DNA of 64,000 nt from Eledone cirrhosa (lineage: Eukaryota), in the NCBI GenBank assembly GCA_964016885.1, contig OZ024741.1:321966001-322030000 (forward strand), read 5' to 3'. Of the stretch, positions 3,421 to 54,601 are shown piece after piece. Made by a program: the position numbers and the translations under genes. Position 1 is the stretch's first letter; every line of letters starts with the position of its first letter. The notes under the pieces were generated by a model. The model had not been told where the DNA came from and ran no database searches. It was given only the letters and a program-made list of their open reading frames with translations.

Positions 3421-4783
<1,363 letters not shown>

Positions 4784-5081
4784 ATAAAAACAAATAACGA
4801 AACGAAATTAAATTTCGTTTCGTTTGTAACTCACTTTTGTATGACTGACGCTCAAACAATTAAGTCAAAGATGTACATCCATATATGTATACTGAAATAC
4901 TAGTATGTATATGAATACACACACGTATACATATGTAGATGTACCAAGTTTTTTTTCACTGATCACTTTACTGTGAGTGGCCAGCTATTCTGTATGTAAA
5001 CACACAGACAAACCGGTTTTTAGAGTCATACTGGTTTTTGAGGAAACACCTTTCCTCTATTCTCCAGAAAGCCAGACAAGG

Positions 5082-5126
5082 AATATTGAACTAGTTTCGT
5101 TGTTGTTACAACTCATCAGCAATATT
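5082..5126 (-). ncRNA. Type I hammerhead ribozyme, first of 6 minus-strand copies (starts 5082, 5551, 6020, 6489, 6958, 7427)
   Basis: Reverse complement of the motif described at 7845-7889. Confidence 0.88.
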
Positions 5127-7844
5127 TACCTATCTTCCGGCCTCTCTAGAGAATCGTAAAAGCACATATCGCTATATGCTTTTTCTATGAAAATTAGTAG
5201 TGGGCAGACCAACTTGCATAGAGTGTGAGTAAGTACCGGTTCAACGGAGACGATAAAAACAAATAACGAAACGAAATTAAATTTCGTTTCGTTTGTAACT
5301 CACTTTTGTATGACTGACGCTCAAACAATTAAGTCAAAGATGTACATCCATATATGTATACTGAAATACTAGTATGTATATGAATACACACACGTGTACA
5401 TATGTAGATGTACCAAGTTTTTTTTCACTGATCACTTTACTGTGAGTGGCCAGCTATTCTGTATGTAAACACACAGACAAACCGGTTTTTAGAGTCATAC
5501 TGGTTTTTGAGGAAACACCTTTCCTCTATTCTCCAGAAAGCCAGACAAGGAATATTGAACTAGTTTCGTTGTTGTTACAACTCATCAGCAATATTTACCT
5601 ATCTTCCGGCCTCTCTAGAGAATCGTAAAAGCACATATCGCTATATGCTTTTTCTATGAAAATTAGTAGTGGGCAGACCAACTTGCATAGAGTGTGAGTA
5701 AGTACCGGTTCAACGGAGACGATAAAAACAAATAACGAAACGAAATTAAATTTCGTTTCGTTTGTAACTCACTTTTGTATGACTGACGCTCAAACAATTA
5801 AGTCAAAGATGTACATCCATATATGTATACTGAAATACTAGTATGTATATGAATACACACACGTATACATATGTAGATGTACCAAGTTTTTTTTCACTGA
5901 TCACTTTACTGTGAGTGGCCAGCTATTCTGTATGTAAACACACAGACAAACCGGTTTTTAGAGTCATACTGGTTTTTGAGGAAACACCTTTCCTCTATTC
6001 TCCAGAAAGCCAGACAAGGAATATTGAACTAGTTTCGTTGTTGTTACAACTCATCAGCAATATTTACCTATCTTCCGGCCTCTCTAGAGAATCGTAAAAG
6101 CACATATCGCTATATGCTTTTTCTATGAAAATTAGTAGTGGGCAGACCAACTTGCATAGAGTGTGAGTAAGTACCGGTTCAACGGAGACGATAAAAACAA
6201 ATAACGAAACGAAATTAAATTTCGTTTCGTTTGTAACTCACTTTTGTATGACTGACGCTCAAACAATTAAGTCAAAGATGTACATCCATATATGTATACT
6301 GAAATACTAGTATGTATATGAATACACACACGTATACATATGTAGATGTACCAAGTTTTTTTTCACTGATCACTTTACTGTGAGTGGCCAGCTATTCTGT
6401 ATGTAAACACACAGACAAACCGGTTTTTAGAGTCATACTGGTTTTTGAGGAAACACCTTTCCTCTATTCTCCAGAAAGCCAGACAAGGAATATTGAACTA
6501 GTTTCGTTGTTGTTACAACTCATCAGCAATATTTACCTATCTTCCGGCCTCTCTAGAGAATCGTAAAAGCACATATCGCTATATGCTTTTTCTATGAAAA
6601 TTAGTAGTGGGCAGACCAACTTGCATAGAGTGTGAGTAAGTACCGGTTCAACGGAGACGATAAAAACAAATAACGAAACGAAATTAAATTTCGTTTCGTT
6701 TGTAACTCACTTTTGTATGACTGACGCTCAAACAATTAAGTCAAAGATGTACATCCATATATGTATACTGAAATACTAGTATGTATATGAATACACACAC
6801 GTATACATATGTAGATGTACCAAGTTTTTTTTCACTGATCACTTTACTGTGAGTGGCCAGCTATTCTGTATGTAAACACACAGACAAACCGGTTTTTAGA
6901 GTCATACTGGTTTTTGAGGAAACACCTTTCCTCTATTCTCCAGAAAGCCAGACAAGGAATATTGAACTAGTTTCGTTGTTGTTACAACTCATCAGCAATA
7001 TTTACCTATCTTCCGGCCTCTCTAGAGAATCGTAAAAGCACATATCGCTATATGCTTTTTCTATGAAAATTAGTAGTGGGCAGACCAACTTGCATAGAGT
7101 GTGAGTAAGTACCGGTTCAACGGAGACGATAAAAACAAATAACGAAACGAAATTAAATTTCGTTTCGTTTGTAACTCACTTTTGTATGACTGACGCTCAA
7201 ACAATTAAGTCAAAGATGTACATCCATATATGTATACTGAAATACTAGTATGTATATGAATACACACACGTATACATATGTAGATGTACCAAGTTTTTTT
7301 TCACTGATCACTTTACTGTGAGTGGCCAGCTATTCTGTATGTAAACACACAGACAAACCGGTTTTTAGAGTCATACTGGTTTTTGAGGAAACACCTTTCC
7401 TCTATTCTCCAGAAAGCCAGACAAGGAATATTGAACTAGTTTCGTTGTTGTTACAACTCATCAGCAATATTTACCTATCTTCCGGCCTCTCTAGAGAATC
7501 GTAAAAGCACATATCGCTATATGCTTTTTCTATGAAAATTAGTAGTGGGCAGACCAACTTGCATAGAGTGTGAGTAAGTACCGGTTCAACGGAGACGATA
7601 AAAACAAATAACGAAACGAAATTAAATTTCGTTTCGTTTGTAACTCACTTTTGTATGACTGACGCTCAAACAATTAAGTCAAAGATGTACATCCATATAT
7701 GTATACTGAAATACTAGTATGTATATGAATACACACACGTATACATATGTAGATGTACCAAGTTTTTTTTCACTGATCACTTTACTGAAAAGCATATAGC
7801 GATATGTGCTTTTACGATTCTCTAGAGAGGCCGGAAGATAGGTA

Positions 7845-7889
7845 AATATTGCTGATGAGTTGTAACAACAACGAAACTAGTTCAATATT
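7845..7889 (+). ncRNA. Type I hammerhead ribozyme, first of 12 plus-strand copies (7845+469k, last copy 13004-13048)
   Basis: AATATTG-CTGATGA-GTTGT(AACA)ACAAC-GAA-AC(TA)GT-T-CAATATT. It has a 7-bp stem I, an intact CUGAUGA and GAAA core, a 5-bp stem II, a palindromic minimal stem III (ACUAGU) and a GUU cleavage triplet (predicted cut after 7882). Confidence 0.9.
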
Positions 7890-10800
7890 CCTTGTCTGGC
7901 TTTCTGGAGAATAGAGGAAAGGTGTTTCCTCAAAAACCAGTATGACTCTAAAAACCGGTTTGTCTGTGTGTTTACATACAGAATAGCTGGCCACTCACAG
8001 TAAAGTGATCAGTGAAAAAAAACTTGGTACATCTACATATGTATACGTGTGTGTATTCATATACATACTAGTATTTCAGTATACATATATGGATGTACAT
8101 CTTTGACTTAATTGTTTGAGCGTCAGTCATACAAAAGTGAGTTACAAACGAAACGAAATTTAATTTCGTTTCGTTATTTGTTTTTATCGTCTCCGTTGAA
8201 CCGGTACTTACTCACACTCTATGCAAGTTGGTCTGCCCACTACTAATTTTCATAGAAAAAGCATATAGCGATATGTGCTTTTACGATTCTCTAGAGAGGC
8301 CGGAAGATAGGTAAATATTGCTGATGAGTTGTAACAACAACGAAACTAGTTCAATATTCCTTGTCTGGCTTTCTGGAGAATAGAGGAAAGGTGTTTCCTC
8401 AAAAACCAGTATGACTCTAAAAACCGGTTTGTCTGTGTGTTTACATACAGAATAGCTGGCCACTCACAGTAAAGTGATCAGTGAAAAAAAACTTGGTACA
8501 TCTACATATGTATACGTGTGTGTATTCATATACATACTAGTATTTCAGTATACATATATGGATGTACATCTTTGACTTAATTGTTTGAGCGTCAGTCATA
8601 CAAAAGTGAGTTACAAACGAAACGAAATTTAATTTCGTTTCGTTATTTGTTTTTATCGTCTCCGTTGAACCGGTACTTACTCACACTCTATGCAAGTTGG
8701 TCTGCCCACTACTAATTTTCATAGAAAAAGCATATAGCGATATGTGCTTTTACGATTCTCTAGAGAGGCCGGAAGATAGGTAAATATTGCTGATGAGTTG
8801 TAACAACAACGAAACTAGTTCAATATTCCTTGTCTGGCTTTCTGGAGAATAGAGGAAAGGTGTTTCCTCAAAAACCAGTATGACTCTAAAAACCGGTTTG
8901 TCTGTGTGTTTACATACAGAATAGCTGGCCACTCACAGTAAAGTGATCAGTGAAAAAAAACTTGGTACATCTACATATGTATACGTGTGTGTATTCATAT
9001 ACATACTAGTATTTCAGTATACATATATGGATGTACATCTTTGACTTAATTGTTTGAGCGTCAGTCATACAAAAGTGAGTTACAAACGAAACGAAATTTA
9101 ATTTCGTTTCGTTATTTGTTTTTATCGTCTCCGTTGAACCGGTACTTACTCACACTCTATGCAAGTTGGTCTGCCCACTACTAATTTTCATAGAAAAAGC
9201 ATATAGCGATATGTGCTTTTACGATTCTCTAGAGAGGCCGGAAGATAGGTAAATATTGCTGATGAGTTGTAACAACAACGAAACTAGTTCAATATTCCTT
9301 GTCTGGCTTTCTGGAGAATAGAGGAAAGGTGTTTCCTCAAAAACCAGTATGACTCTAAAAACCGGTTTGTCTGTGTGTTTACATACAGAATAGCTGGCCA
9401 CTCACAGTAAAGTGATCAGTGAAAAAAAACTTGGTACATCTACATATGTATACGTGTGTGTATTCATATACATACTAGTATTTCAGTATACATATATGGA
9501 TGTACATCTTTGACTTAATTGTTTGAGCGTCAGTCATACAAAAGTGAGTTACAAACGAAACGAAATTTAATTTCGTTTCGTTATTTGTTTTTATCGTCTC
9601 CGTTGAACCGGTACTTACTCACACTCTATGCAAGTTGGTCTGCCCACTACTAATTTTCATAGAAAAAGCATATAGCGATATGTGCTTTTACGATTCTCTA
9701 GAGAGGCCGGAAGATAGGTAAATATTGCTGATGAGTTGTAACAACAACGAAACTAGTTCAATATTCCTTGTCTGGCTTTCTGGAGAATAGAGGAAAGGTG
9801 TTTCCTCAAAAACCAGTATGACTCTAAAAACCGGTTTGTCTGTGTGTTTACATACAGAATAGCTGGCCACTCACAGTAAAGTGATCAGTGAAAAAAAACT
9901 TGGTACATCTACATATGTATACGTGTGTGTATTCATATACATACTAGTATTTCAGTATACATATATGGATGTACATCTTTGACTTAATTGTTTGAGCGTC
10001 AGTCATACAAAAGTGAGTTACAAACGAAACGAAATTTAATTTCGTTTCGTTATTTGTTTTTATCGTCTCCGTTGAACCGGTACTTACTCACACTCTATGC
10101 AAGTTGGTCTGCCCACTACTAATTTTCATAGAAAAAGCATATAGCGATATGTGCTTTTACGATTCTCTAGAGAGGCCGGAAGATAGGTAAATATTGCTGA
10201 TGAGTTGTAACAACAACGAAACTAGTTCAATATTCCTTGTCTGGCTTTCTGGAGAATAGAGGAAAGGTGTTTCCTCAAAAACCAGTATGACTCTAAAAAC
10301 CGGTTTGTCTGTGTGTTTACATACAGAATAGCTGGCCACTCACAGTAAAGTGATCAGTGAAAAAAAACTTGGTACATCTACATATGTATACGTGTGTGTA
10401 TTCATATACATACTAGTATTTCAGTATACATATATGGATGTACATCTTTGACTTAATTGTTTGAGCGTCAGTCATACAAAAGTGAGTTACAAACGAAACG
10501 AAATTTAATTTCGTTTCGTTATTTGTTTTTATCGTCTCCGTTGAACCGGTACTTACTCACACTCTATGCAAGTTGGTCTGCCCACTACTAATTTTCATAG
10601 AAAAAGCATATAGCGATATGTGCTTTTACGATTCTCTAGAGAGGCCGGAAGATAGGTAAATATTGCTGATGAGTTGTAACAACAACGAAACTAGTTCAAT
10701 ATTCCTTGTCTGGCTTTCTGGAGAATAGAGGAAAGGTGTTTCCTCAAAAACCAGTATGACTCTAAAAACCGGTTTGTCTGTGTGTTTACATACAGAATAG

Positions 10801-13267
10801 CTGGCCACTCACAGTAAAGTGATCAGTGAAAAAAAACTTGGTACATCTACATATGTATACGTGTGTGTATTCATATACATACTAGTATTTCAGTATACAT
10901 ATATGGATGTACATCTTTGACTTAATTGTTTGAGCGTCAGTCATACAAAAGTGAGTTACAAACGAAACGAAATTTAATTTCGTTTCGTTATTTGTTTTTA
11001 TCGTCTCCGTTGAACCGGTACTTACTCACACTCTATGCAAGTTGGTCTGCCCACTACTAATTTTCATAGAAAAAGCATATAGCGATATGTGCTTTTACGA
11101 TTCTCTAGAGAGGCCGGAAGATAGGTAAATATTGCTGATGAGTTGTAACAACAACGAAACTAGTTCAATATTCCTTGTCTGGCTTTCTGGAGAATAGAGG
11201 AAAGGTGTTTCCTCAAAAACCAGTATGACTCTAAAAACCGGTTTGTCTGTGTGTTTACATACAGAATAGCTGGCCACTCACAGTAAAGTGATCAGTGAAA
11301 AAAAACTTGGTACATCTACATATGTATACGTGTGTGTATTCATATACATACTAGTATTTCAGTATACATATATGGATGTACATCTTTGACTTAATTGTTT
11401 GAGCGTCAGTCATACAAAAGTGAGTTACAAACGAAACGAAATTTAATTTCGTTTCGTTATTTGTTTTTATCGTCTCCGTTGAACCGGTACTTACTCACAC
11501 TCTATGCAAGTTGGTCTGCCCACTACTAATTTTCATAGAAAAAGCATATAGCGATATGTGCTTTTACGATTCTCTAGAGAGGCCGGAAGATAGGTAAATA
11601 TTGCTGATGAGTTGTAACAACAACGAAACTAGTTCAATATTCCTTGTCTGGCTTTCTGGAGAATAGAGGAAAGGTGTTTCCTCAAAAACCAGTATGACTC
11701 TAAAAACCGGTTTGTCTGTGTGTTTACATACAGAATAGCTGGCCACTCACAGTAAAGTGATCAGTGAAAAAAAACTTGGTACATCTACATATGTATACGT
11801 GTGTGTATTCATATACATACTAGTATTTCAGTATACATATATGGATGTACATCTTTGACTTAATTGTTTGAGCGTCAGTCATACAAAAGTGAGTTACAAA
11901 CGAAACGAAATTTAATTTCGTTTCGTTATTTGTTTTTATCGTCTCCGTTGAACCGGTACTTACTCACACTCTATGCAAGTTGGTCTGCCCACTACTAATT
12001 TTCATAGAAAAAGCATATAGCGATATGTGCTTTTACGATTCTCTAGAGAGGCCGGAAGATAGGTAAATATTGCTGATGAGTTGTAACAACAACGAAACTA
12101 GTTCAATATTCCTTGTCTGGCTTTCTGGAGAATAGAGGAAAGGTGTTTCCTCAAAAACCAGTATGACTCTAAAAACCGGTTTGTCTGTGTGTTTACATAC
12201 AGAATAGCTGGCCACTCACAGTAAAGTGATCAGTGAAAAAAAACTTGGTACATCTACATATGTATACGTGTGTGTATTCATATACATACTAGTATTTCAG
12301 TATACATATATGGATGTACATCTTTGACTTAATTGTTTGAGCGTCAGTCATACAAAAGTGAGTTACAAACGAAACGAAATTTAATTTCGTTTCGTTATTT
12401 GTTTTTATCGTCTCCGTTGAACCGGTACTTACTCACACTCTATGCAAGTTGGTCTGCCCACTACTAATTTTCATAGAAAAAGCATATAGCGATATGTGCT
12501 TTTACGATTCTCTAGAGAGGCCGGAAGATAGGTAAATATTGCTGATGAGTTGTAACAACAACGAAACTAGTTCAATATTCCTTGTCTGGCTTTCTGGAGA
12601 ATAGAGGAAAGGTGTTTCCTCAAAAACCAGTATGACTCTAAAAACCGGTTTGTCTGTGTGTTTACATACAGAATAGCTGGCCACTCACAGTAAAGTGATC
12701 AGTGAAAAAAAACTTGGTACATCTACATATGTATACGTGTGTGTATTCATATACATACTAGTATTTCAGTATACATATATGGATGTACATCTTTGACTTA
12801 ATTGTTTGAGCGTCAGTCATACAAAAGTGAGTTACAAACGAAACGAAATTTAATTTCGTTTCGTTATTTGTTTTTATCGTCTCCGTTGAACCGGTACTTA
12901 CTCACACTCTATGCAAGTTGGTCTGCCCACTACTAATTTTCATAGAAAAAGCATATAGCGATATGTGCTTTTACGATTCTCTAGAGAGGCCGGAAGATAG
13001 GTAAATATTGCTGATGAGTTGTAACAACAACGAAACTAGTTCAATATTCCTTGTCTGGCTTTCTGGAGAATAGAGGAAAGGTGTTTCCTCAAAAACCAGT
13101 ATGACTCTAAAAACCGGTTTGTCTGTGTGTTTACATACAGAATAGCTGGCCACTCACAGTAAAGTGATCAGTGAAAAAAAACTTGGTACATCTACATATG
13201 TATACGTGTGTGTATTCATATACATACTAGTATTTCAGTATACATATATGGATGTACATCTTTGACT

Positions 13268-14692
<1,425 letters not shown>

Positions 14693-14737
14693 TATATATA
14701 TATATATATACATATACATACATATATATATATACAT

Positions 14738-14776
<39 letters not shown>

Positions 14777-14821
14777 CATACATATATATATATACATATA
14801 CATACATATATATATATACAT

Positions 14822-14852
<31 letters not shown>

Positions 14853-14864
14853 CATATACATACC

Positions 14865-15010
14865 TATGGTAGAGAATGTTGAGAAGCCGAGGGGATCACT
14901 AATGTAGGTGGGAAGCCGCTAGAATTGGTTGAGGACTTCTTGTATTTGGGAGCAAAGATTGGGAATACGGAATATGATGTGGTTGAGAGGAGGAGCAAAG
15001 CCTGGGCTAT
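14865..15010 (+). mobile_element. RTE-like LINE RT fragment
   Basis: Encodes [14 protein letters not shown]...RRSKAWA (F.YLG motif downstream of the RT core). Confidence 0.7.
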
Positions 15011-16280
<1,270 letters not shown>

Positions 16281-35529: not shown

Positions 35530-36235
35530 ATAGAGTTAGAAATAGAAGGTAAATAGAAAGTAAAGAGTGATGAGAGGAAGGAACAGGTAAAATGTGAAAA
35601 AAAAAAAAAAATGCAAACATGGAAAAATGGACATAAAAGGATCACAATATATATATCATCATCACCGTTTTACGTCCATTCTTCTACAGTAATATGAGTT
35701 AGACAGGTTGTCGTGTTGTGGACAGTGCCAGGTCAGGTAACCTTGTCTTGTTCATACGGGAACTGATTTTTGCTTGATTTCTACAGCTGGATGCCCTTCC
35801 TAACACCAACCTCATTTATAGTGAGTACTGGGTACTTTTTTACTGTGGCCACTATATATATGATATATATATATATATATACAGAATACCCAACTTCCCA
35901 TGGGTACAAGCCGAAGCTGAAGCATATAGACAATATGCCCCCACCTCCTCCCACTGCAAAGTGGTTGTGTAGGTGCCACGGCAAAAAAGCACCCAGCCCA
36001 CACTCTAAAGTGGTTGTGTAGGTGCCACGGAAAAAAAGCACCCACCACTCACTGTAAATGAGGTTGATGTTAGGAAGGGCATCCAGCTGTAGAAATCATG
36101 CCAAAATCAGTTCCCATATGAGCAAGAGAAGGTCAGCCGACCGGGCACTGCTCACAACAGGACAACCCATCTAATTCATGCAAGCGTGGAAGAATGGACG
36201 TAAAACAGTGATGATGATGATGATGATGATGATAT

Positions 36236-39335: not shown

Positions 39336-40133
39336 TGATTATACATTGGAATGGAAGAAATGATGGAGTATCAAGCTAAACAGTTTGTAAAATTTAGTTG
39401 CATTACTGTGTAAAGTGTTAGTGCTGGTGCCTCAACAAAATACACTCATTAGACTCTGTAAAGTGATAGTGTTGGTGTCATGATAAAATACACCCAGTTA
39501 TATACTGTAAAGTGGTAGTGCTGATGCCATGATAAAATGCATTCAGTACACTCTGTAAAATGACAATGCTGTTGCCACAATATAATGCACCCAGTACACT
39601 ATGTAAAATGGTTGGAATTAGGAAGGGCATCTAGTTGTATAAACCAAGACATGATTCTCCAAATGGTCTAGTCTCAGACTGTGACAATCTGTCCTATCTA
39701 TGCCAGCATAGGAAGACATATGATAATGATGATGATGAATTTACGTTTTAGATTCCAATCACAGTGAGCTTCACTTCTGTCTTCCATATCTCAGTGATCA
39801 ATAGATCAATAAAATAAGTATGAGGTGATTAATTTGACTATACCGCATCTGCCTCCTCACCATGCCACCTGTGAATTTGTGCCAATATTAGATAGAGAAC
39901 CTTATTGTTGATTTTTAATGTAGGCATTTAGGGGAGGGCTATGGATTATTTTCTCAACCCCAGTACATGACAGGTACTTATGTAAAGCAAATCTGACCTT
40001 GCTGGGATTTGAACTCAGAATGTAAAGAGCCATAACAAAATATTTCACCACAACTTGTCCTATGTCTGTCACCCTATCCACTCAGTTCTCAGTGAAACAA
40101 CCATTGTATTTATAACAAGAAAACAAAAAGGTG

Positions 40134-40479: not shown

Positions 40480-41000
40480 CAATGGACAAATAGACAGGTA
40501 GACAGATAGACAAACAGGTAGAAGGTTGGCAGATAGACAGGTAGACAGATAGAGAGGTAGACAGGCATGTAGACAAACTGACATAGATAGACAGAGAGGT
40601 AAACAGGCAGACATACTGGCAGGCAAACAGTGAGAGAGACTGGCAGACAAATTGGCAGACAGACTGGCAGGTAGACAGAGAGGCAGACAGACTGGCAGGT
40701 AGACAGAGAGGCAGACAGACAAACGGCCATGACAAGTGGTAACATGTTGTAAGGAAGACCTAATTCAGCGGGGGTGGGGAGACCTTATCAAAAATGGATA
40801 TTAGAACATTAGCAATGATGATGATGATTGTGAAGGTGATGGTAATGATGGTGGTGGTGATGATGATGGTGATAATAATGGTGGTGGTGGTGGTGAATGT
40901 GGTAATAATGATAACAGTGGTAGTGGTAATCATGATGGTGGTGGTGATGAATGTAGTGATGATGATGATGATTAATATGATGGTTATAGTGATGATATAG
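40480..41000. repeat. (AGAC/AGGT)n tract followed by a (GAT/GGT)n tract
   Basis: Directly visible. Confidence 0.85.
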
Positions 41001-41012
41001 ATGCAGATATCA

Positions 41013-41055
<43 letters not shown>

Positions 41056-41266
41056 TGGAGACCTATTTATAAACCCATCCATTTATATATTCCGTCTTCT
41101 GCCCCACTCTCTCTATCCCTCCATCTAACTAACAATATTACCCCCCGCGCTCTCTCTCTCTATCTATCTATCCATCCATCCATCCATCCATCTTTCTCTC
41201 TATCTATCAATATATCTATCCACCTATCTACCCATCCATCCATCCACCTACCTACCTACCTATCTC

Positions 41267-42240
41267 TGGCACCTCGAGTGCCTTTAGGCGCTCACAGCCC
41301 TCTACCAAGCAGAAACGACAATAGCAGAGCCTCTACTTCGACATTCTATAGGGGATTAGTGGAGGATAAGTGTGACGACGTTCTCGGGGAAACTCTAGTC
41401 ATTGAGGAGGATGAACTGACCAGTCTGTTCAGGAGGACTTTCCGTCCAGGGCCTATGGATAACTTCCAGAGGTCTCTGTCCTCGCAGTGCTACCGAGGAG
41501 CTCTACCAGTTCGAGACAAAATCTACAGGCACGGACGCCCTGGCAGAGATCCTGCCAAAAGGACCTGTCCAAGATGCGAGCAGGACATCGAAACCGTTCT
41601 GCACACAATTGTTCAGTGCCCAGGGGTGACCGACCTGTGGAATTATGTCGAACAGCTACTGTCACGTGTGGGACACATCCAGTTGTCAGTCGAGTCCATC
41701 GTGAGCATCACCCCACAGCCTTCATTTAAGAATGAAGGAGAGGTGGTTTTCCTCTGTCTGGTGGCTATGGCGAAAGAGGTAATATGGTGGACAAGGTTAA
41801 AAGGACTGAGGGCAAACACCTTTCTCTCCGGACATCAACTTATCCCCTTCTTTAAGTATCACTTCAGAAGGAAGATGAAAGTGGAGAGAGAGGTGCTACA
41901 CCCCAGTAAATTCGCTGAAAGGTGGGTGAATGTGGCAAAAATGGCCCAAGTGAATGGGCTTCTCTGTATATAAACCTGTAGGTTGAGGAGGATAAACACA
42001 GGGAAGATGGGAACACCTACAAAACATGTTCCTGGTGTTGAGGGTTGTTCTATCCACGGGGTGTCAAACAACCCTGCAGTAACGTTCCCCCCTATTGGGG
42101 ATTTCAATTGTTACTTTATTATATATAGTTTACTCTTATTTATTAATGTTAAAGTTATATAATTTTTATGTAAAACCCCCACCGTCACGTCTTGTAATGT
42201 CCCATTTTTGTATGCCCCCTGTGGCAAATAAAGAAAGATA
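41267..42240 (+). mobile_element. 5'-truncated Tx1-clade LINE: ORF2 C-terminus with zinc-binding domain plus 3' UTR
   Basis: CPRCEQDIETVLHTIVQC (zf-RVT-type CCHC). Stop at 41973, AATAAA at the 3' end, (TCTA/TCCA)n on both flanks. Confidence 0.9.
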
Positions 42241-42477
42241 TCTATCTATCTATCCACTTATCTATCTATTTATCTATCCATCCATCTATCTATATATCAA
42301 ACTAACAATCCATATTCTCCAATCTTGTGAATCTGTTTATCTCTAAGCTTAGAGATTTGTGATAAGTGCACCATTTAAAAATGTAATTCAACTTGTTCCA
42401 TTCCAAATGATAAGGTTTGTGATATGGAGGGGTCAAAACTATTTATTTACATATTTATTTATTTATGAATTATTAAT

Positions 42478-43040
42478 GATTGGTGGTGGCGATGGTGGTG
42501 GCGATGGTGGTGGTGTGGTAGTGAAGATGGTGGTGGTGGTGTTGGAGATGGTGTGGAGGTGATGGTGAAGGTGAAGATGGTGGTGGAGGTGGAGACGATG
42601 TGGTGGTAGTGGTGGTGATGGTGTGGTGGTAGTGGTGATGATGGTGTGGTGGTAGTGGTGGTGGAGATGGTGGTGGTGAAGTGGTGAGGTGAGCATCATA
42701 GCTATTGATTTCTACCTCTTCCTCTTCCAATTCAACAATTGTTATCAACCCAGTGCTGGTGGTGATGGAAGGGAGGAGGAAACAATGTTTTGATTTATTG
42801 GAGCTTATCCTAGTTTACAAATTAAATCATCATCATCATCACCATCATCAGTTGTATCACCAGCACCACCACCATCATCACCATCACCAGTTGTTCCACC
42901 ACCACCAACAACAGCAACAAGAACACCACCACCATCATCACAGTTCCACCACAACCACCACTACAATCATCATCCTCATCATCAGTTGTACCACCACCAT
43001 CATCATCATCACCAGTTGTACCACCACCATATTCATCATC
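42478..43040. repeat. (GGT)n and (CAC/CAT)n low-complexity tracts
   Basis: Directly visible. Confidence 0.85.
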
Positions 43041-43068
43041 AAATTCATGAGCTTACATCATGAATGAA

Positions 43069-43279
43069 ACACCCTAACCCCATAGACTTGTACCTTCACA
43101 CCCTAACCCCATAGACTTGTACCTTCACACCCTAACCCCATAGACTTGTACCGTCACACAATAACCCCATAGACTTGTACCTTCACACCCTAACCCCATA
43201 GACTTGTACCTTCACACAATAACCCCATAGACTTGTACCTTCACACCCTAACCCCATAGACTTGTACCTTCACACAATA
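43069..43279. repeat. 29-bp minisatellite, about 7 copies (ACACCCTAACCCCATAGACTTGTACCTTC)
   Basis: Directly visible. Two unit variants (CCCTAA and CAATAA). Confidence 0.92.
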
Positions 43280-43359
43280 ATAATGGTTTCTGATTTCGAC
43301 AAACGACCAACATCAATTAAATTGACCACAGAGTGTTACTGATACTTTATTTTATTGAC

Positions 43360-46127
43360 CCTGGATCTCTCTGAGAACGTTGTTGCTCTTCCCCTCCACT
43401 AGTCCTCTATAGAACGCCGAGGTGGATGTTCCACCGATACTGGTGCCCAGCTGGCAGAGGGCAGTGAGCGCCTGGAGACATTCCAGTTTCCAAGTACTAT
43501 CCCTCGGTCTTTTTCTGACCCAGGACTGCAGCTCCGTCAAGGAGACGAGCTGTGGGAAAACGTGCCTGGCGAACGGCAACCACACCTGTTCACCGTCAAG
43601 GAAGCACCAGAGATGTCGCAGCCTCAGCGCATGTTTGCGCATCATCAGCCATGGCATGCCCAGTCCTCCACGCAACGGGTGTTGACAGCAGATGGATCGC
43701 CTGACCATGGGAGCGCGTCCCTTCCACAAAAAGTGGAAGAGAAGGTGCTTCATTTTGGTGAGAGTTGGGCCGGAGCAAGGGTCGACGGTGAGGCGGTAGC
43801 AGATGACGGATGCGATGTACGCATTCCCCACCTCCGCCCAGCCTTTCAGGGACAGCTTCCTCTCGGCCCATTTCTGGGTGAGGGAGGCCACCTTGCTCGT
43901 CACCTCATTCCAGTTTTTCTCCATCTGGAGGTCCGGTCCGAACCAGACCCAAAGCAATTTAACCGGTCCGTCTGTCCAACATCCCACGACGCTGTCGGAT
44001 GGCATGGACTTGCCTCTCCAGGTGCCGAGCTGCAAGCCCACCGACTTTTCCTGGTTTATCTTTGCTCCTGTCACCGCTTCGTATTCCTTGAGAGCGGTGC
44101 CGAGCATCTGGACGTGTCTGGTGCTCGACACCACCACGGTGACGTCGTCGGTCTAAGCCGACTCGGATTTCCCGCATCCTAGTTCACGTGGGACGCCCCT
44201 CATCGCCCCCAGTTTGTGCAGTAACAGCTCGAGAGCCAATATGTACAAGAGGGACGAGAGGGGACAACTCTGGCGGACTGAGCGCATGATGCTGAACGGC
44301 TGCGACAGGTGACTGTTCACCCTCACAACTGAGCAGATGAAAACGGGCCCAAAACCGGCTGCCTCGAGGACCGCCACCAGGTACCGATGGTCGACCCTAT
44401 TGAATGCTTTGGATTGATCCATGCTGATCAGGGCCCCAGCCGTGCCAGGTTCCTTAACCACCCTGTCTATGATGTATCGCATGAGGCGGAGGTTGTTGTG
44501 TAAAAATCTGTCCAGAATAGCGCATGTCTGCGCCTCTTCAACCAGACCCTTCACGACAAGCGCCAACCTCGTTATGGGCCTGAAATTATCGATAACATCC
44601 CCCTTGTTCGGGGTTTTTATCAGTAGCGCCACCACTCCCCGGCTCACAAAACTGGGAATGCTCCCGTTCTGCTGCCAGTTGCAGTAGACGTCTGCCAAGA
44701 GGTCACCGAACAAGTCTGGCATAAATGCATAAAGCTCGTAAGGCAGACCATCCAAACCTGGCGATTTACCCCTCGTGCAGTTAGCCATCGCTTCCCGTAT
44801 TTCACCGGCTGTTATTGGCTTTTCGCAACACTGTGCTGCGGACGTTGAGGGCCGAGGCAGTCCGTCGAGGTATGCACTGAAGTCCATGCCCCGATCCGGG
44901 CCGCCGCTGCTCCCGAACAGTTCAGCAAAGTGCTGCTGAAAAGCTTCACACATCTGCTCGAGTTCAAGCAACACGCGCCCGTTTTGGTCAGACAAAGACC
45001 GAATTGTGGCTTTGTTGCCATGTCATGCCTCTGCCACCCGGGCCCATTGGACGGCTTTTGTCCCCTCGTGTTTCAGAGCACGCGCTCTAGCTCTGACAAC
45101 GCAGCCTTCGTGTTTTGTGTTGAAGAATTGGTTGAGTGCTAATCTCGCCGCAAGCACGTCGGTTGCGATGCCTGTTCTAAATGCCTCTTCTAGCTTTCTG
45201 ACTAGCTCTCCCTCTACTCTATTTTCTTCTATCACTAGTCCTTTGCTAAACCTAATCGACTCTACTTTAATTGTCTTTTTCAGGGCAAACCACCACCTGT
45301 TGTTGACGACCGCTCCCGTCAACGCCCGCTTAACTAATACGCTAATCCGGTCTCTGTAGGCTTTGCGTGCCGGGAAAGACGCGTTCAGCTTCCAGTAACT
45401 GGGCTCTTGTCTATGAAGTCTGTCTATGTCGATCTCACAGATCACAAATTTGTGGTCTGTGGAGTTGACTATTTTAAATTGTGGACAACTTATACTAGAC
45501 TTATCTAGTTCTCTGCAGAATACCCTATCGAGATATGATCTGGATGACCCGGTGCGGTTTGTCCATGTCCACATTGGCACAGTCGGGTGATCCAGTCGAT
45601 ACCTGTCAGACAGTTCAATATGTCTGAGCAGGTTGGTGAGGCTCTTGCATCCTCCTCCCCTATCCACTAGCCCCACACAATCCCAGCGTGCATCCAAGAT
45701 ACCGTTCCAGTCGCCCACTAACACTAAAGAGCGGGACGTTCCAAGAAAGGTCTCTAGACGTCTGAAGAAATCTGGCCGTCCTGCCCCTGTTGGGGCATAG
45801 ACGGCTACTAGCCTTAAAGCATTGCCTTCGCTGCCGGTCACGTCTAGCACCACCGACTTACCTTCTGGGTCTAGGAAGATGGCCCGTACGGCGAGATCCA
45901 AGCCTCTCCGAAAAAGGACAGCAACCCCCCCCCCCCCGATCTTGGACGGCTGGGAGATATGTATACATTGTAGCCGCCGGTGTGAAGGTTTGTGCTTTGG
46001 AGATTCTGGTCTCACTGATGGCCACCACATCTATGTTTAGTGACCTGAGGTCGTTGAGCAGGTGACCCTGCTTCCAAGATGACCCCAGGCCATGTGCATT
46101 TATACTGCCTATTCTGAGTACGGCCAT
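43360..46127 (-). pseudogene. Tx1/L1-clade LINE ORF2 (APE endonuclease plus reverse transcriptase), frameshifted and 3'-truncated
   Basis: Endonuclease motifs: MAVLRIGSINAHGL, ISET, AVYAP, LVGDWN, SYLDRVF, TDHK, YWKLN. RT motifs: KSPGLDGLPYELY, NFRPIT, DQSKAFNRVDH, SVRQSCPLS. The Y codon of YADD is mutated to a stop near 44153. Confidence 0.93.
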
Positions 46128-46159
46128 GTTGGATGAGAAACGGGCCAAGTGAGAAAGGG

Positions 46160-48183
46160 TCACTTACCTTGATCGTGTGGTGAAGGGACAGTAGAACCGA
46201 CCCTTTGGCTGGTCATGGGTGTTTCCAAGAGGATGTCAGTGTATATCCTATTGGTAACCGACCCTCTGAAGTCTCCAACTGCGTTGGGGAAATTTTGTTT
46301 TAAAGGTTTGTACTGTTCTATTGAGATTTCAATGATGCTTATGTTTGTTGGGAGAGTTCTTGGTGTTGGTGGGGTGTAGTAGTTTTTTTCTGTGATATCT
46401 GTGTGCTGCTTTATATATTGTATGAGTTCTTTTTTTGCCATATTTATGGCTGTGTACTTTTTGGGGGGAGGGGTAATTTTGTTGCTGTTTTCTTCTTGTT
46501 GCTGTTTGGTGTGTGTGTTTTGTTTTGTTTGCGTTGTTGGTGTTTTTGGTGATGCTGGTGGTGGTGTGGTAGTTGTTGGCGGTGGTGCTTGTGGTGGTGA
46601 TGGTGGTGGTGTTGCTGCAAGTTTCCTTGCTGCCTTTACTCCTCTTTGTGTACCTTCGCTTTTGGAGGGTGAATCTAAGGGCTTTTTTGTTTTTTGTTTT
46701 TTGTGGCAGACCGTTTGCCACTTCACTCCCGCCTCAAACTCCATGTCAGATTCCGTGGTGTCTGGGAGGGGTATATGCTCCACGGCTGTTGGTGGTGGTA
46801 GTGGAGCCCTCTTCGGCAATTTTGTTGCTGGTGTAGCTACTTCAAATGTAGCTATTGGTGTTGCCGCCACTGATGCTGCTGCTGTCGTTGTACATGGCCT
46901 TGGTATGGGTGCCACGGACGTTGCCCTCCTACTCACCGTGGAAGGGGCTTCTGCGTTTGTTGCCTGCCCTGCTCTTGGTAGCAGCGGACCAGGTATTGGA
47001 AGGAGAGGGGCCTTCTTCTTCGCTGTCTTCTGCGGGCAAAAGGTCCTGAGGTGACCCTTCGACCCACAGAGATAACATTTTGGTCATCTTCCTTCTACGC
47101 TTATAGGGAGTTGGAGTCCTTCCTCGATGTCTATGATATCGGGGATAGCGCCGATACATTCCTGGTCGGTTTGTATAAGCATTTGCATGCCTATACCTGA
47201 CCAGTTCTCTCTCCCTATTTTTTCTACTTGCAGCATGGTCGTCCTGTCCTCGATTCCAGCAAGGACAGACGCAGCCAGCCAAGGTATGGGCACGTCGGGT
47301 GGGACCTGGGTCACTTTGACCCTCACAATTTTCTGCCCGCAGTAGGAGGGCACCAAGACTATCTCCTCACTCTTGAGGGTTTCCAAAGAGTGAGACTTTG
47401 CTTCCTGGGAGGTGGCGAAAAGTACGTCTACTGTGGCGTACTTTCTGCCTCGGGTGATGTGGGTTTTGCGTGCCCAGACGCACCCCAAGGCCTTTTGGAT
47501 TTGAGCCTCCGTGGCTCTCTCCACCCGATGTGAGATTTTGCTTACGGTGCGGTAAGTCACCGTCCGTAGCTGCTGGTCCTTGAAAAAAAATTGGGTGGAG
47601 GTTTCAGGGAGACTCTATTGGCGCTTCTTGTCACCATGGCCCTTGCAACTGCCATCTCCTCCTCTGTGACTAACACTGTCTTGATATTTCAGGCGACACC
47701 TGTAAAAGAAGTGGTCCCTTTTTCAGCAGCACCACTATTGCTGCCGCTACTGGTCTTACTGGTGGTGCTGAGATCGCTGTTACAGGTATCGCTGTCATTG
47801 TTGATGTTTTCGTTGGTACAGTTGTTGGTGGTGTTGTTGTTGTTTTCGTTGATACTGTTGCTGTTGTTACTGTTGTTATTATTGTTGTTTTTGTTGATAC
47901 TGTTCCTACTATTATTGTTGTTGTGGCTGTTATTGTCATTGTTATTGTCGTTCTCGACCTTACCGCTGTTATTTTTGTTGTTGCTGTTGTTATTGATGGT
48001 GTTGTTGTTGGTGTTGTTTGTGTTAGAAATATTTGGTAGTTTTAAATCTGTAACAATCCTCTTTTCCTTTGTAATATTTTCATTTATATTTACCTCCGCT
48101 GGAACGCTGTCTTGTTGACATGCTGATAAAGTCCCCCTCTCTCTGTGTTGTCTGACAGCGCGCTCTCTCTTTGTGTTATCCAT
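46160..48183 (-). pseudogene. Tx1/L1-clade LINE ORF1 (gag-like, CCHC zinc knuckle, Asn-rich N-terminus)
   Basis: ATG at 48183. In-frame TGA at 47689 and 47084; frameshift in the A8 run at 47583-47590. CYLCGSKGHLRTFC knuckle at about 47036-47077. Ends just upstream of the ORF2 ATG. Confidence 0.85.
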
Positions 48184-49644: not shown

Positions 49645-49960
49645 GCCATCATTATGGTTTAATGTCCATTTTCCATGCTAGCAAAGGTAGGACGGACTGT
49701 CCCTTTGTGAGAAATCAGGTCAAAAACCATATTTCGTTCACACAGAACTGATTTTAGCTTGGTTTCTACAGTTGGATGCTCTTCCTAACGCCAACCACAT
49801 TAACAGTGTGTGCTGGGTACTTTTTGTCGTGCCACCTACACAACCACTTTACAGTGTGGGCTGGGTGCTTTTTGTTGTGATACCTACATGACCACTTCAC
49901 AATGTAGGCTGAGTGCTTTTTGTTGTGATACCTACACAACCACTTTACAGTGTGGGGTTC
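49645..49960 (-). mobile_element. SINE 3' half with an internal ~41-bp tandem repeat; similar pieces at about 35655-35830, 35950-36230, 39400-39735, 53975-54320, 58395-58650
   Basis: Repeated CCACTTTACAGTGTGGGCTGGGTGCTTTTTGT subunit and a TTCTACAG.TGGATGC.CTTCCTAAC block. Confidence 0.75.
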
Positions 49961-53950: not shown

Positions 53951-54601
53951 AGTGTACTGAGTCCATTTTGTGGCATAACCATTACAACTTTACAGAGTGT
54001 ACTGGGTGCATCTTATCATGGTACCAGTAGTACTACTTTACAGTGTGTAATGTGTATTTTATTGTGACACTAGCATTACCCCTTTACAAAGTGTACTGGG
54101 TGCATCTTATCATGGTACCAGTAGTACTACTTTACAGTGTGTAATGGGTCTATTCTATTGTGACACTAGCATTACCACTTTACAGAGTGTACTGGGTGCA
54201 TCTTATCATGGTATCAGTAGTACTACTTTACAGTGTGTAATGGGTCTATTTTATTGTGACACTAGCATTACCACTTTACAGAGTGTACTGGGTGCATTCT
54301 ATCGTGGTAGCAGCACTTAGAGGTTGTCATATTTAAATTAAAATCTTCCAACATGTTAAGTTAGTAATTTAATAATGAAATGATTGATAATTTTAGTAAA
54401 TCTGCCAAACTTCATTAATGAACCAAAATGGAGTGAGTAAGGAAATAAAATATAGAGTCTAGACATATAAAACATAAACAACAGATATAGTAGTTATGAG
54501 AGTGATTGTTTCACATAAGTTTTCTTATGTGAAACAAGGTTTGTATGAAGTTCAGAGCTAATCCTGATTTCATTGATGTTAAACAATGAGAGTATAAGAC
54601 C

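Follow-up and report, generated by a model that had tools for sequence, protein, structure and literature searches.

How could a 469-bp hammerhead unit with no coding capacity come to be copied into DNA as two arrays that run in opposite directions from a single point? Positions 4784..13267 of the window, the 64,000-nucleotide stretch of Eledone cirrhosa DNA analysed here, raise this question. An earlier note on this DNA had described a single tandem array; we find instead two inverted, divergent arms (6.4 copies on the minus strand, 11.7 on the plus strand) within a (TA)n tract, flanked by a 12-bp duplication of the target. Other parts of that description hold. The exact 45-nt hammerhead motif occurs 18 times, with six copies on the minus strand (from 7471 to 5082) and 12 on the plus strand (7845 up to 13048), recurring every 469 nt; the units are nearly identical, with one substitution (5396) in 8,484 bp, a homogeneity that assembly polishing could inflate; and no recognisable protein is encoded, the longest Met-started ORF of the circularised unit being 23 aa. 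Neither the unit nor the space between the arms holds an ORF, such as the reverse transcriptase (RT) plus GIY-YIG ORF of an autonomous Penelope-like element (PLE). Our answer, to which we assign a probability of roughly two in three, is that a PLE RT-endonuclease cut the (TA)n tract and that both DNA ends repeatedly copied one predicted monomeric circle. The parts of the locus are these:

3424..4783, no strand: portion of the (TA/CA)n target microsatellite to the left of the element
4775..4786, plus: left copy of the 12-bp target-site duplication, CATACATATATA, its last 3 nt in common with the element end
4784..7787, minus: left arm of 6.4 units with 6 hammerheads; its outer (3') end falls on unit base 305 (site B) and its inner end on 116, and it carries the SNP at 5396
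7787..7788, no strand: head-to-head arm junction, blunt, without microhomology or filler
7788..13267, plus: right arm of 11.7 identical units with 12 hammerheads; its inner end falls on unit base 375 and its outer (3') end on 226
7841..7891, plus: type I hammerhead whose stem I is extended and has a UAA bulge; cleavage is predicted after 7882
7883..8351, plus: one monomer of 469 nt from cut to cut; as a circle it is predicted to fold at -152 kcal/mol (z -9.2)
8026..8100, plus: TA-rich hairpin, likely a captured microsatellite, compared with related family 2
8113..8187, plus: 'tail' bounded by the two fixed 3' ends, site A at unit ~231 and site B at 305, and containing a 13-bp hairpin; the two sites are putative reverse-transcription starts
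8218..8256, plus: AU-rich hairpin, unit 336-374, an array-wide A>G hot spot in other insertions; here unedited at unit 339, 343, 344, 360 and 372
13268..13279, plus: right copy of the target-site duplication
13268..16280, no strand: right part of the target microsatellite, with the same strand bias as the left part

The right-arm outer end at 226 belongs to site A, falling 5-9 nt short of the usual 231-235. The TA-rich hairpin is likely a captured microsatellite because the equivalent segment in family 2 is almost pure (TA)n, in an alignment whose L120 row is unreliable over the first 170 columns. We rejected a mirror artefact from a missed adapter, since the flanks have a common strand bias and the centre is not palindromic.

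In each unit all core bases of a hammerhead are in place, stems I and II have 7 and 5 bp, stem III is the palindrome ACTAGT and the cleavage site is GUU, confirming the motif as first described. Stem I continues beyond the UAA bulge, which makes this type I hammerhead canonical and not minimal, with a stem I bulge and a loop II. In Rfam, the best evidence was a sub-threshold match to Hammerhead_HH9 (37.7 bits, E 1e-7), and nothing reached the gathering score of 52. The core is invariant among 95 arms, and in a set of 10 related, mutually non-independent sequences 96% of cells are paired, compared with 32-51% for slid controls, and 6/16 pairs have two-sided changes. The sense strand of the monomer folds far better than shuffled sequence (z -9.2, against -4.5 for the antisense; 100 shuffles), and pairs are kept by 14/21 inherited changes but only 33/119 single-unit changes (p 9e-4); selection thus acts on the sense-strand fold. 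RNAalifold on 17 units gave two-sided pairs in only 2/142 because the units are too alike, and the single-sequence fold was used instead. Self-cleavage of the 469-nt unit is predicted from the motif. A GUU cleavage site is weaker than GUC, and of nine predicted Xenopus retrozymes only one cleaved in vitro.

The family is abundant. The hammerhead pattern has 9,467 matches in the 3-Gb genome and none in a reversed control, so it does not arise by chance, and the matches lie on many chromosomes, bearing out the expectation of dispersed copies. Its units are tandem, a few hundred bp long (469 bp; published non-LTR retrozymes have units of 150-450 bp, up to 972) and non-coding, each with a type I hammerhead (18/18 intact here). 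GC content is ~36%, below the 50% bound for retrozymes; LTRs are absent; the ends adjoin (TA)n; and target duplications are 10-13 bp where the flank is informative, beyond the >4 bp expected of the class. Together with a young subfamily and a PLE-type insertion footprint, these features support the proposal of a young non-autonomous retrozyme, and we are highly confident that 4784..13267 is a non-LTR retrozyme with PLE-type two-end priming.

Two-orientation insertions were divergent in 57/57 cases in a systematic tally, and in all 49 that could be scored (8 of 57 were unscorable) one end lay at 226-236 and the other at 300-306, with none using the same site twice (p 4e-15). A further 15/15 scorable insertions also had one end of each kind, for a total of 64/64, and short-read contigs from another run stop at the same two sites and then enter (AT)n. 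A head-to-head inverted copy, a tail, an AT-rich target and a duplication are the marks of a PLE-mobilised insertion, and the retrozyme shows all four. The inner ends are spread evenly over the unit (KS p 0.5).

Candidate enzymes are present in the same genome. Coding PLE families A and B carry RT and GIY-YIG domains, and each has two 3' ends, ~64 and 45-57 nt apart, with one of each in 5/5 inverted pairs. The coding PLEs of Eledone cirrhosa follow the same one-site-per-arm rule as the retrozyme, and this end rule matches the published two-site PLE 'tail'; a PLE protein in vitro nicks and extends both strands, and its RT starts at two internal sites (PMC11167929). A GIY-YIG scan found at least five PLE lineages among the 56 loci examined (of 150 scored, from 10,595 first-look candidates). 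The earlier note had looked to an RT plus GIY-YIG element sharing the repeat, and none of these 56 loci resembles the unit. We counted this absence, within those 56 loci, against our preferred reading.

Variants bear on what was copied. The arms run seamlessly across the ribozyme cut, and array-wide variants are common to both arms. Some of the loci in this study had been chosen by identity or by variant and do not form a random sample. Of the young loci with at least four copies, 10/33 carry a substitution in every covered unit, and in both arms where both cover it. For example, 380C>G occupies 4/4 units of one insertion and occurs nowhere else, and 6T>C and 56C>T are each multi-unit at one locus only. 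These variants give independent support to the rolling-circle RT origin that had been drawn from homogeneity. By itself homogeneity is no proof, since long arms of old insertions have expanded by recombination: they are mosaics with duplicated blocks and a ~6-unit higher-order period (L070/71, L075; L170/125), so that length and homogeneity also alter after insertion. We also rejected dimer circles as a general explanation for period-2 variants, as L037 better fits later block duplication. Subfamily switches inside an arm (L056, L166) and A/G mixtures with periods of 2 and 3 (L173, L058) mean that not all insertions derive from one monomer, and a monomeric circle is probably the usual template. 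The suggestion that read-through yields 469-nt RNAs does not hold as stated, since with inverted arms a transcript entering from a flank would be antisense over one of them.

The array-wide variants are also biased in kind. On the ribozyme strand, A>G makes up 11/23 array-wide sites (10/20 without three likely polarity errors) but 13/165 single-unit changes (p 1e-5), an excess that persists relative to the equally wobble-tolerant C>T (p 0.006). The 336-374 hairpin holds 6/10 array-wide and 0/13 single-unit A>G changes. In out-of-sample unit counts, 344A>G outnumbers 361C>T by 208 to 22, with many 344G loci related by ancestry, and 372A>G outnumbers 369C>T by 43 to 12, a difference that by locus is only 14 to 10. 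344G filled every covered unit in 10/10 loci fetched for it; the control 361C>T was array-wide too, at 2/14 loci. This pattern suggests A-to-I editing of an RNA template, and we think it likely that ADAR is the cause.

An alternative that we consider unlikely keeps two-end PLE priming and takes as template a linear, multimeric transcript that a parent array made and that was never cut; ribozyme and circle would then be incidental, and long homogeneous arms would reflect homogeneous parents and later tandem expansion. For an Anolis PLE, hammerhead cleavage is dispensable and uncut RNA is the main substrate in vitro (PMC11167929). Moreover, expansion after insertion is seen in old arms, the mixed periods of L173 and L058 require multi-unit templates, and the distribution of arm lengths has a heavy tail, with no correlation between the two arms (rho 0.08). 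However, no candidate homogeneous parent, in the form of a second array, was found in the assembly for 3/4 array-wide variants searched, and 0/48 single-unit variants of young arrays recur at another locus. L130, a young array on another chromosome with 6T>C in 1/7 units, may have given rise to insertion L062, in which all units have 6C, but this is only suggestive because 6T>C also arose on eight older backgrounds; single 56C>T matches lie in older subfamilies in 6/6 cases. Unit-by-unit editing of a multimer should give mixed arrays, yet only one mixed state occurs across 10 hairpin adenosines in ~45 loci, and the conserved hammerhead core, with its covariation, also speaks against an incidental ribozyme.

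A linear monomer, cleaved or terminally redundant, with tandem copies made by repeated RT template jumps, likewise gives a one-unit bottleneck, and template switches do occur (L056, L134, L166). It is nevertheless improbable, as 454/455 cut-site junctions have the exact length with no inserted bases, and inner ends are not concentrated there (1/86 within 10 nt of the cut). Still less credible is an inverted arm that arose through fold-back self-priming, the route suggested for PLEs of rotifers (PMC3846280), or through DNA-level inversion, without a second target-primed event. A few variants in single units of both arms (L041, L042) and the L037 centre, which sits in the unit's own hairpin, would fit; but centres are not palindromic, the two inner ends of an insertion are unrelated, and the outer ends invariably fall on two distinct fixed sites, each adjoining target DNA with a duplication, so that the one-of-each ends largely exclude this route. 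An ordinary satellite or assembly artefact with a chance hammerhead-like motif, which near-perfect homogeneity and the low Rfam score might recall, is the least likely of these readings, given the spread over many chromosomes, the target duplications, the covariation and the identical ends in short-read contigs.

In the reading we prefer, with one circle copied from both ends of a cut, a multimeric transcript would self-cleave, probably as a dimer via palindromic stem III; cofolding two hammerhead copies predicts such pairing (-17.2 versus 2 x -6.9 kcal/mol). A host ligase would circularise the monomer, whose stems may sometimes be edited by ADAR. A PLE protein dimer would then nick both strands ~12 bp apart, with one strand primed at unit ~231 and the other at ~305. 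Each RT could complete a random number of rounds, the cDNA ends being joined with 0-4 nt of microhomology or short filler. A minority of events may use a multi-unit template or two different templates, and old arms would later expand in the manner of satellite DNA.

In L1 twin priming, cDNA synthesis starts from each end of the target on RNA of the same sense, and the result is an inverted insertion flanked by a duplication. The position of the second primer is internal and varies, and what the two arms copy are neighbouring stretches that do not overlap. The retrozyme shares the inverted insertion, the duplication and, in our reading, priming from both target ends. Its sites, however, are both fixed, both arms copy the whole unit repeatedly, its insertion ends lack poly(A), and its inner ends, spread over the whole unit, do not show the first arm ending beside the second priming site.

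EN+ PLEs of the Neptune and Poseidon groups have an optional tail at one end and 8-10-bp duplications (PMC8557442, PMC3846280, PMC11167929). They share with the retrozyme a head-to-head inverted copy (truncated in PLEs), AT-rich targets and, as we infer for the retrozyme, two internal RT start sites with extension of both strands. The retrozyme differs in lacking an ORF, in having two arms that are multimers of one unit, and in a tail of 70-75 nt, compared with 30-40 in published PLEs and 45-64 in those of Eledone cirrhosa. In the available portions of these papers the tail is optional and a strict one-site-per-arm rule is not stated.

For metazoan non-LTR retrozymes, the accessible parts of the literature propose rolling-circle RT of a circle by PLEs (Cervera and de la Pena 2020, PMC7229834; PMC7761336; bioRxiv 10.64898/2026.07.22.740005). 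The features they share with our family are non-coding units in tandem, each with a single type I hammerhead, as well as low GC, a highly paired fold, duplications >4 bp and PLE co-occurrence. Inverted arms, fixed priming sites and an editing footprint are undescribed in those parts, and the word 'inverted' occurs 0 times in the accessible text of PMC7229834. A 2020 review reports no motif pointing to the mobilising element (PMC7761336); Li, Clavereau and Pollet (2026, bioRxiv 10.64898/2026.07.22.740005) find pLTR homology in Xenopus, whereas the 56 Eledone loci offered none for this unit. Newt satellite 2 and schistosome Sm-alpha have a canonical type I fold with a short palindromic helix III (PMC4209133, PMC7229834); helix III type and expected cleavage as a dimer, here a cofold prediction, are common ground, but sequence and unit length differ. 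Searches of open literature brought up no paper on this 469-bp family, on retrozymes in head-to-head arrangement or on edited ones.

The papers cited here leave open how retrozymes are copied into DNA and what produces the inverted copy and optional tail of PLE insertions. This family gives a countable footprint for both questions, recording the copied RNA strand, the priming point at each DNA end and the usual one-unit template, and the same genome supplies the 469-nt substrate and candidate enzymes. Older insertions show how arrays acquire higher-order repeats and become satellites. Should the A>G excess indeed reflect editing, then the arrays in the genome preserve a record of A-to-I editing in the germline, and these elements mutate in part through editing. 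The broadest proposal, for which we judge the case evenly balanced, is that PLE-type enzymes use two dedicated RNA sites to prime the two ends of a staggered break and that here, on a single ADAR-edited circle, edits are amplified into every unit and enter the germline genome, driving ribozyme-replicon evolution at thousands of loci. If true, two-site priming would explain the inverted copy and 'tail' of PLEs generally, and those loci would reveal a heritable route from RNA editing to DNA.

The 18 copies of the 45-nt hammerhead motif that the earlier note had assigned to one tandem array are all present, but they fall into two divergent arrays, with 12 on the plus strand and 6 on the minus strand.

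Tandem repeats in the window (arrays of the 469-bp unit from TRF)
4784-7787: left array, 6.4 copies
7788-13267: right array, 11.7 copies
35958-36066, 39405-39607, 49792-49956 and 53980-54315: four short dispersed arrays of a 48-bp minisatellite, related repeats in both orientations

Relative to hammerhead-sense RNA, the two arms run outward from their joint at 7787/7788 and lie inside a single (TA/CA)n tract, with a 12-bp duplication at their bounds and one substitution across 8,484 bp. Units are numbered from 7883, the first base 3' of the predicted cut. The Rfam check proposed earlier returns a match of the window hammerhead to HH9 (37.7 bits, E 1e-7), but with a score below gathering threshold. 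The circular monomer has a predicted fold of -152 kcal/mol (z -9.2; antisense strand, z -4.5). As far as their available text goes, papers on non-LTR retrozymes (PMC7229834, PMC7761336, bioRxiv 10.64898/2026.07.22.740005, PMC4209133) describe no testable feature that the 469-bp element lacks, and they already propose copying of circles by Penelope-like elements (PLEs). The window element is a genuine retrozyme insertion, young and of a class already known; hammerhead cleavage, RNA circles and RNA editing are predicted here from sequence. The terms 'ribozyme' and 'retrozyme' are absent from the available text of an Octopus repeat annotation (PMC13282606). A transcript spanning 4784-13267 would fold back into ~3 kb of perfectly paired double-stranded RNA, likely a substrate for siRNA production or for ADAR, as would that of every two-armed insertion. 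Elsewhere, 40996-47083 holds a broken LINE, L1/Tx1-like by domain order, with zf-CCHC, AP endonuclease and RT on the minus strand and a zf-RVT piece on the plus strand.

Every two-orientation insertion in our mapped sample (the window and the 33 loci of best identity, loci taken by position along chromosome 1, and 19 more insertions) is divergent (57/57). Apart from eight that are cut off or rearranged, both outer ends can be scored, and each of these 49 insertions pairs one outer end within unit 226-236 with another within 300-306, none having two alike; 15 extra scorable insertions are consistent with this rule. The outer end of 22 single-arm insertions lies at one of the same two sites, and four of these conceal a second arm of 7-20 nt. 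Contigs from an independent short-read run break off at the same sites and then enter (AT)n. Inner ends are distributed uniformly along the unit, with joints of mostly 0-4 nt microhomology, otherwise short filler; target duplications measure 10-13 bp at loci with informative flanks.

What template would yield such arms? A cleaved linear monomer would limit them to 235 or 305 nt, yet 42/49 and 45/49 cross the cut (hammerhead-containing loci are over-represented in this sample), and 454/455 cut-site junctions are exact. This leaves a circle or an uncut multimer as the template. The two arms of one insertion have a common haplotype, across subfamilies. A substitution fills every covered unit at 10/33 young loci, close to the single-unit substitution rate (0.16 per unit), which is what amplification of one unit per daughter would produce. 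The change 380C>G occupies 4/4 units of one insertion and is private to it, 6T>C and 56C>T are each multi-unit at one locus, and 121A>G fills two insertions. Against a one-unit template, old long arms have a mosaic make-up that includes duplicated blocks, and loci L056 (1543-5671) and L166 change subfamily (4% divergence) within one arm, so a single insertion drew on two RNA molecules. Also counting against it, L173 (G000:C2:316.97 Mb) alternates A/G at 372, the period being 2 in one arm and, together with 169, 3 in the other, and L058 alternates A/G at 69, possibly reflecting dimer or trimer templates. An old arm of at least 22 units at L170+L125 (G000:C1:95.955-95.966 Mb), with a roughly 6-unit higher-order repeat, is a retrozyme turning into a satellite.

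Across 3.0 Gb in 1,796 contigs, the hammerhead pattern gives 9,467 matches (control, 0), bearing out the dispersed copies anticipated in the earlier note. The first 100 matches represent about 26 insertions, which extrapolates to roughly two thousand insertions for the family. The window's young subfamily accounts for about 700 units, and the others are 85-98% alike. The hammerhead core is invariant among 95 arms; in stem II a U-A pair can be exchanged for A-U, and cleavage triplets are either GUU or GUC. A second, distantly related tandem hammerhead family (L119:8300-10000, L120:1900-2500, L145, L152) has units of about 480-510 nt alignable along the length of the 469-bp unit, the same helix order, a GUA site and an internal (TA)n hairpin, and the end of one copy corresponds by homology to unit 305; with this family included, two-sided hammerhead changes are seen at 6/16 pairs. 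Scored against the fold of just one unit, inherited changes are commoner at unpaired sites than single-unit mutations (39/60 vs 46/165) and more often keep pairing (14/21 vs 33/119), and thus the sense RNA fold of the family is under selection. Flanks of L074, L075, L080, L087, L088 and L147 contain abundant short palindromic repeats with a hammerhead-like core, CTGATGA...GAAA. A low-depth 503-nt contig from run X4 (organism B) aligns to 7817-8315 and differs from the young unit at just two bases, unit 5 and unit 344, each an A>G change, and at four gap positions, which could reflect shared activity, transfer or contamination.

Single-unit mutations (n=165, among them 24 C>T, 24 G>A, 23 T>C and 13 A>G) are distributed roughly symmetrically between the strands. 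Array-wide locus-specific changes, by comparison, are A>G at 11/23 sites, or 10/20 (p 1e-5) once 414, 56T>C and 143, three probably retained ancestral states, are dropped. Tolerance of G-U pairs does not explain this excess, because C>T is equally tolerated yet rare (2/20, p 0.006); selection for particular G-U pairs is another possible explanation. Six of the ten array-wide A>G changes fall within one AU-rich hairpin, where single-unit A>G was not seen; L088 and L139 carry three clustered A>G apiece; and 5' G is absent at array-wide A>G sites, in line with ADAR's neighbour preference. Out of sample, 344A>G occurs in 208 units, the first 100 of which span 19 loci (11 with both arms) and seven sequence backgrounds, against 22 units at 14 loci for the control 361C>T, and 372A>G occurs in 43 units at 14 loci and 369C>T in 12 units from 10, all unit counts being inflated by shared ancestry. 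Among fetched loci, 344G fills every covered unit in 10/10, 372G is array-wide in three and mixed in two, and the control is array-wide in two. An RNA-born change present in all units fits repeated reading of one edited monomer. The window array is unedited at 344, 372 and the other hairpin A>G sites, and thus the evidence for editing is family-level.

PLEs are candidates for the copying enzyme. The genome is rich in them, with 10,595 first-look GIY-YIG candidates and RT + GIY-YIG ORFs of up to 938-1,096 aa. The coding families A and B also terminate in (TA)n, at either of two alternative 3' sites, with one of each in 5/5 inverted pairs. Inverted copies and an optional tail appear in the available text of Craig et al. 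(PMC8557442) and Arkhipova et al. (PMC3846280), and the PLE protein of Frangieh et al. (PMC11167929) nicks and extends both strands, its two internal start sites being the tail bounds. Most simply, each DNA end of a staggered cut would prime cDNA, one end per RNA site. The PLE sharing the repeat that had been envisaged did not emerge, as no PLE in 56 loci has sequence in common with the 469-bp unit. In family B, a hammerhead-like motif of type I lies in the 3' UTR, about 380 nt past the stop (L112, L113, L115, L122, L124, L153, L156, L161, L162). Its site is CUU and its stem III the palindrome AGTACT, matching the retrozyme in design but not in sequence. A literature search covering article texts found neither the two-site, two-arm rule nor editing in retrozymes reported. 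The insertion footprint offers a way to test how retrozymes and PLEs are copied.
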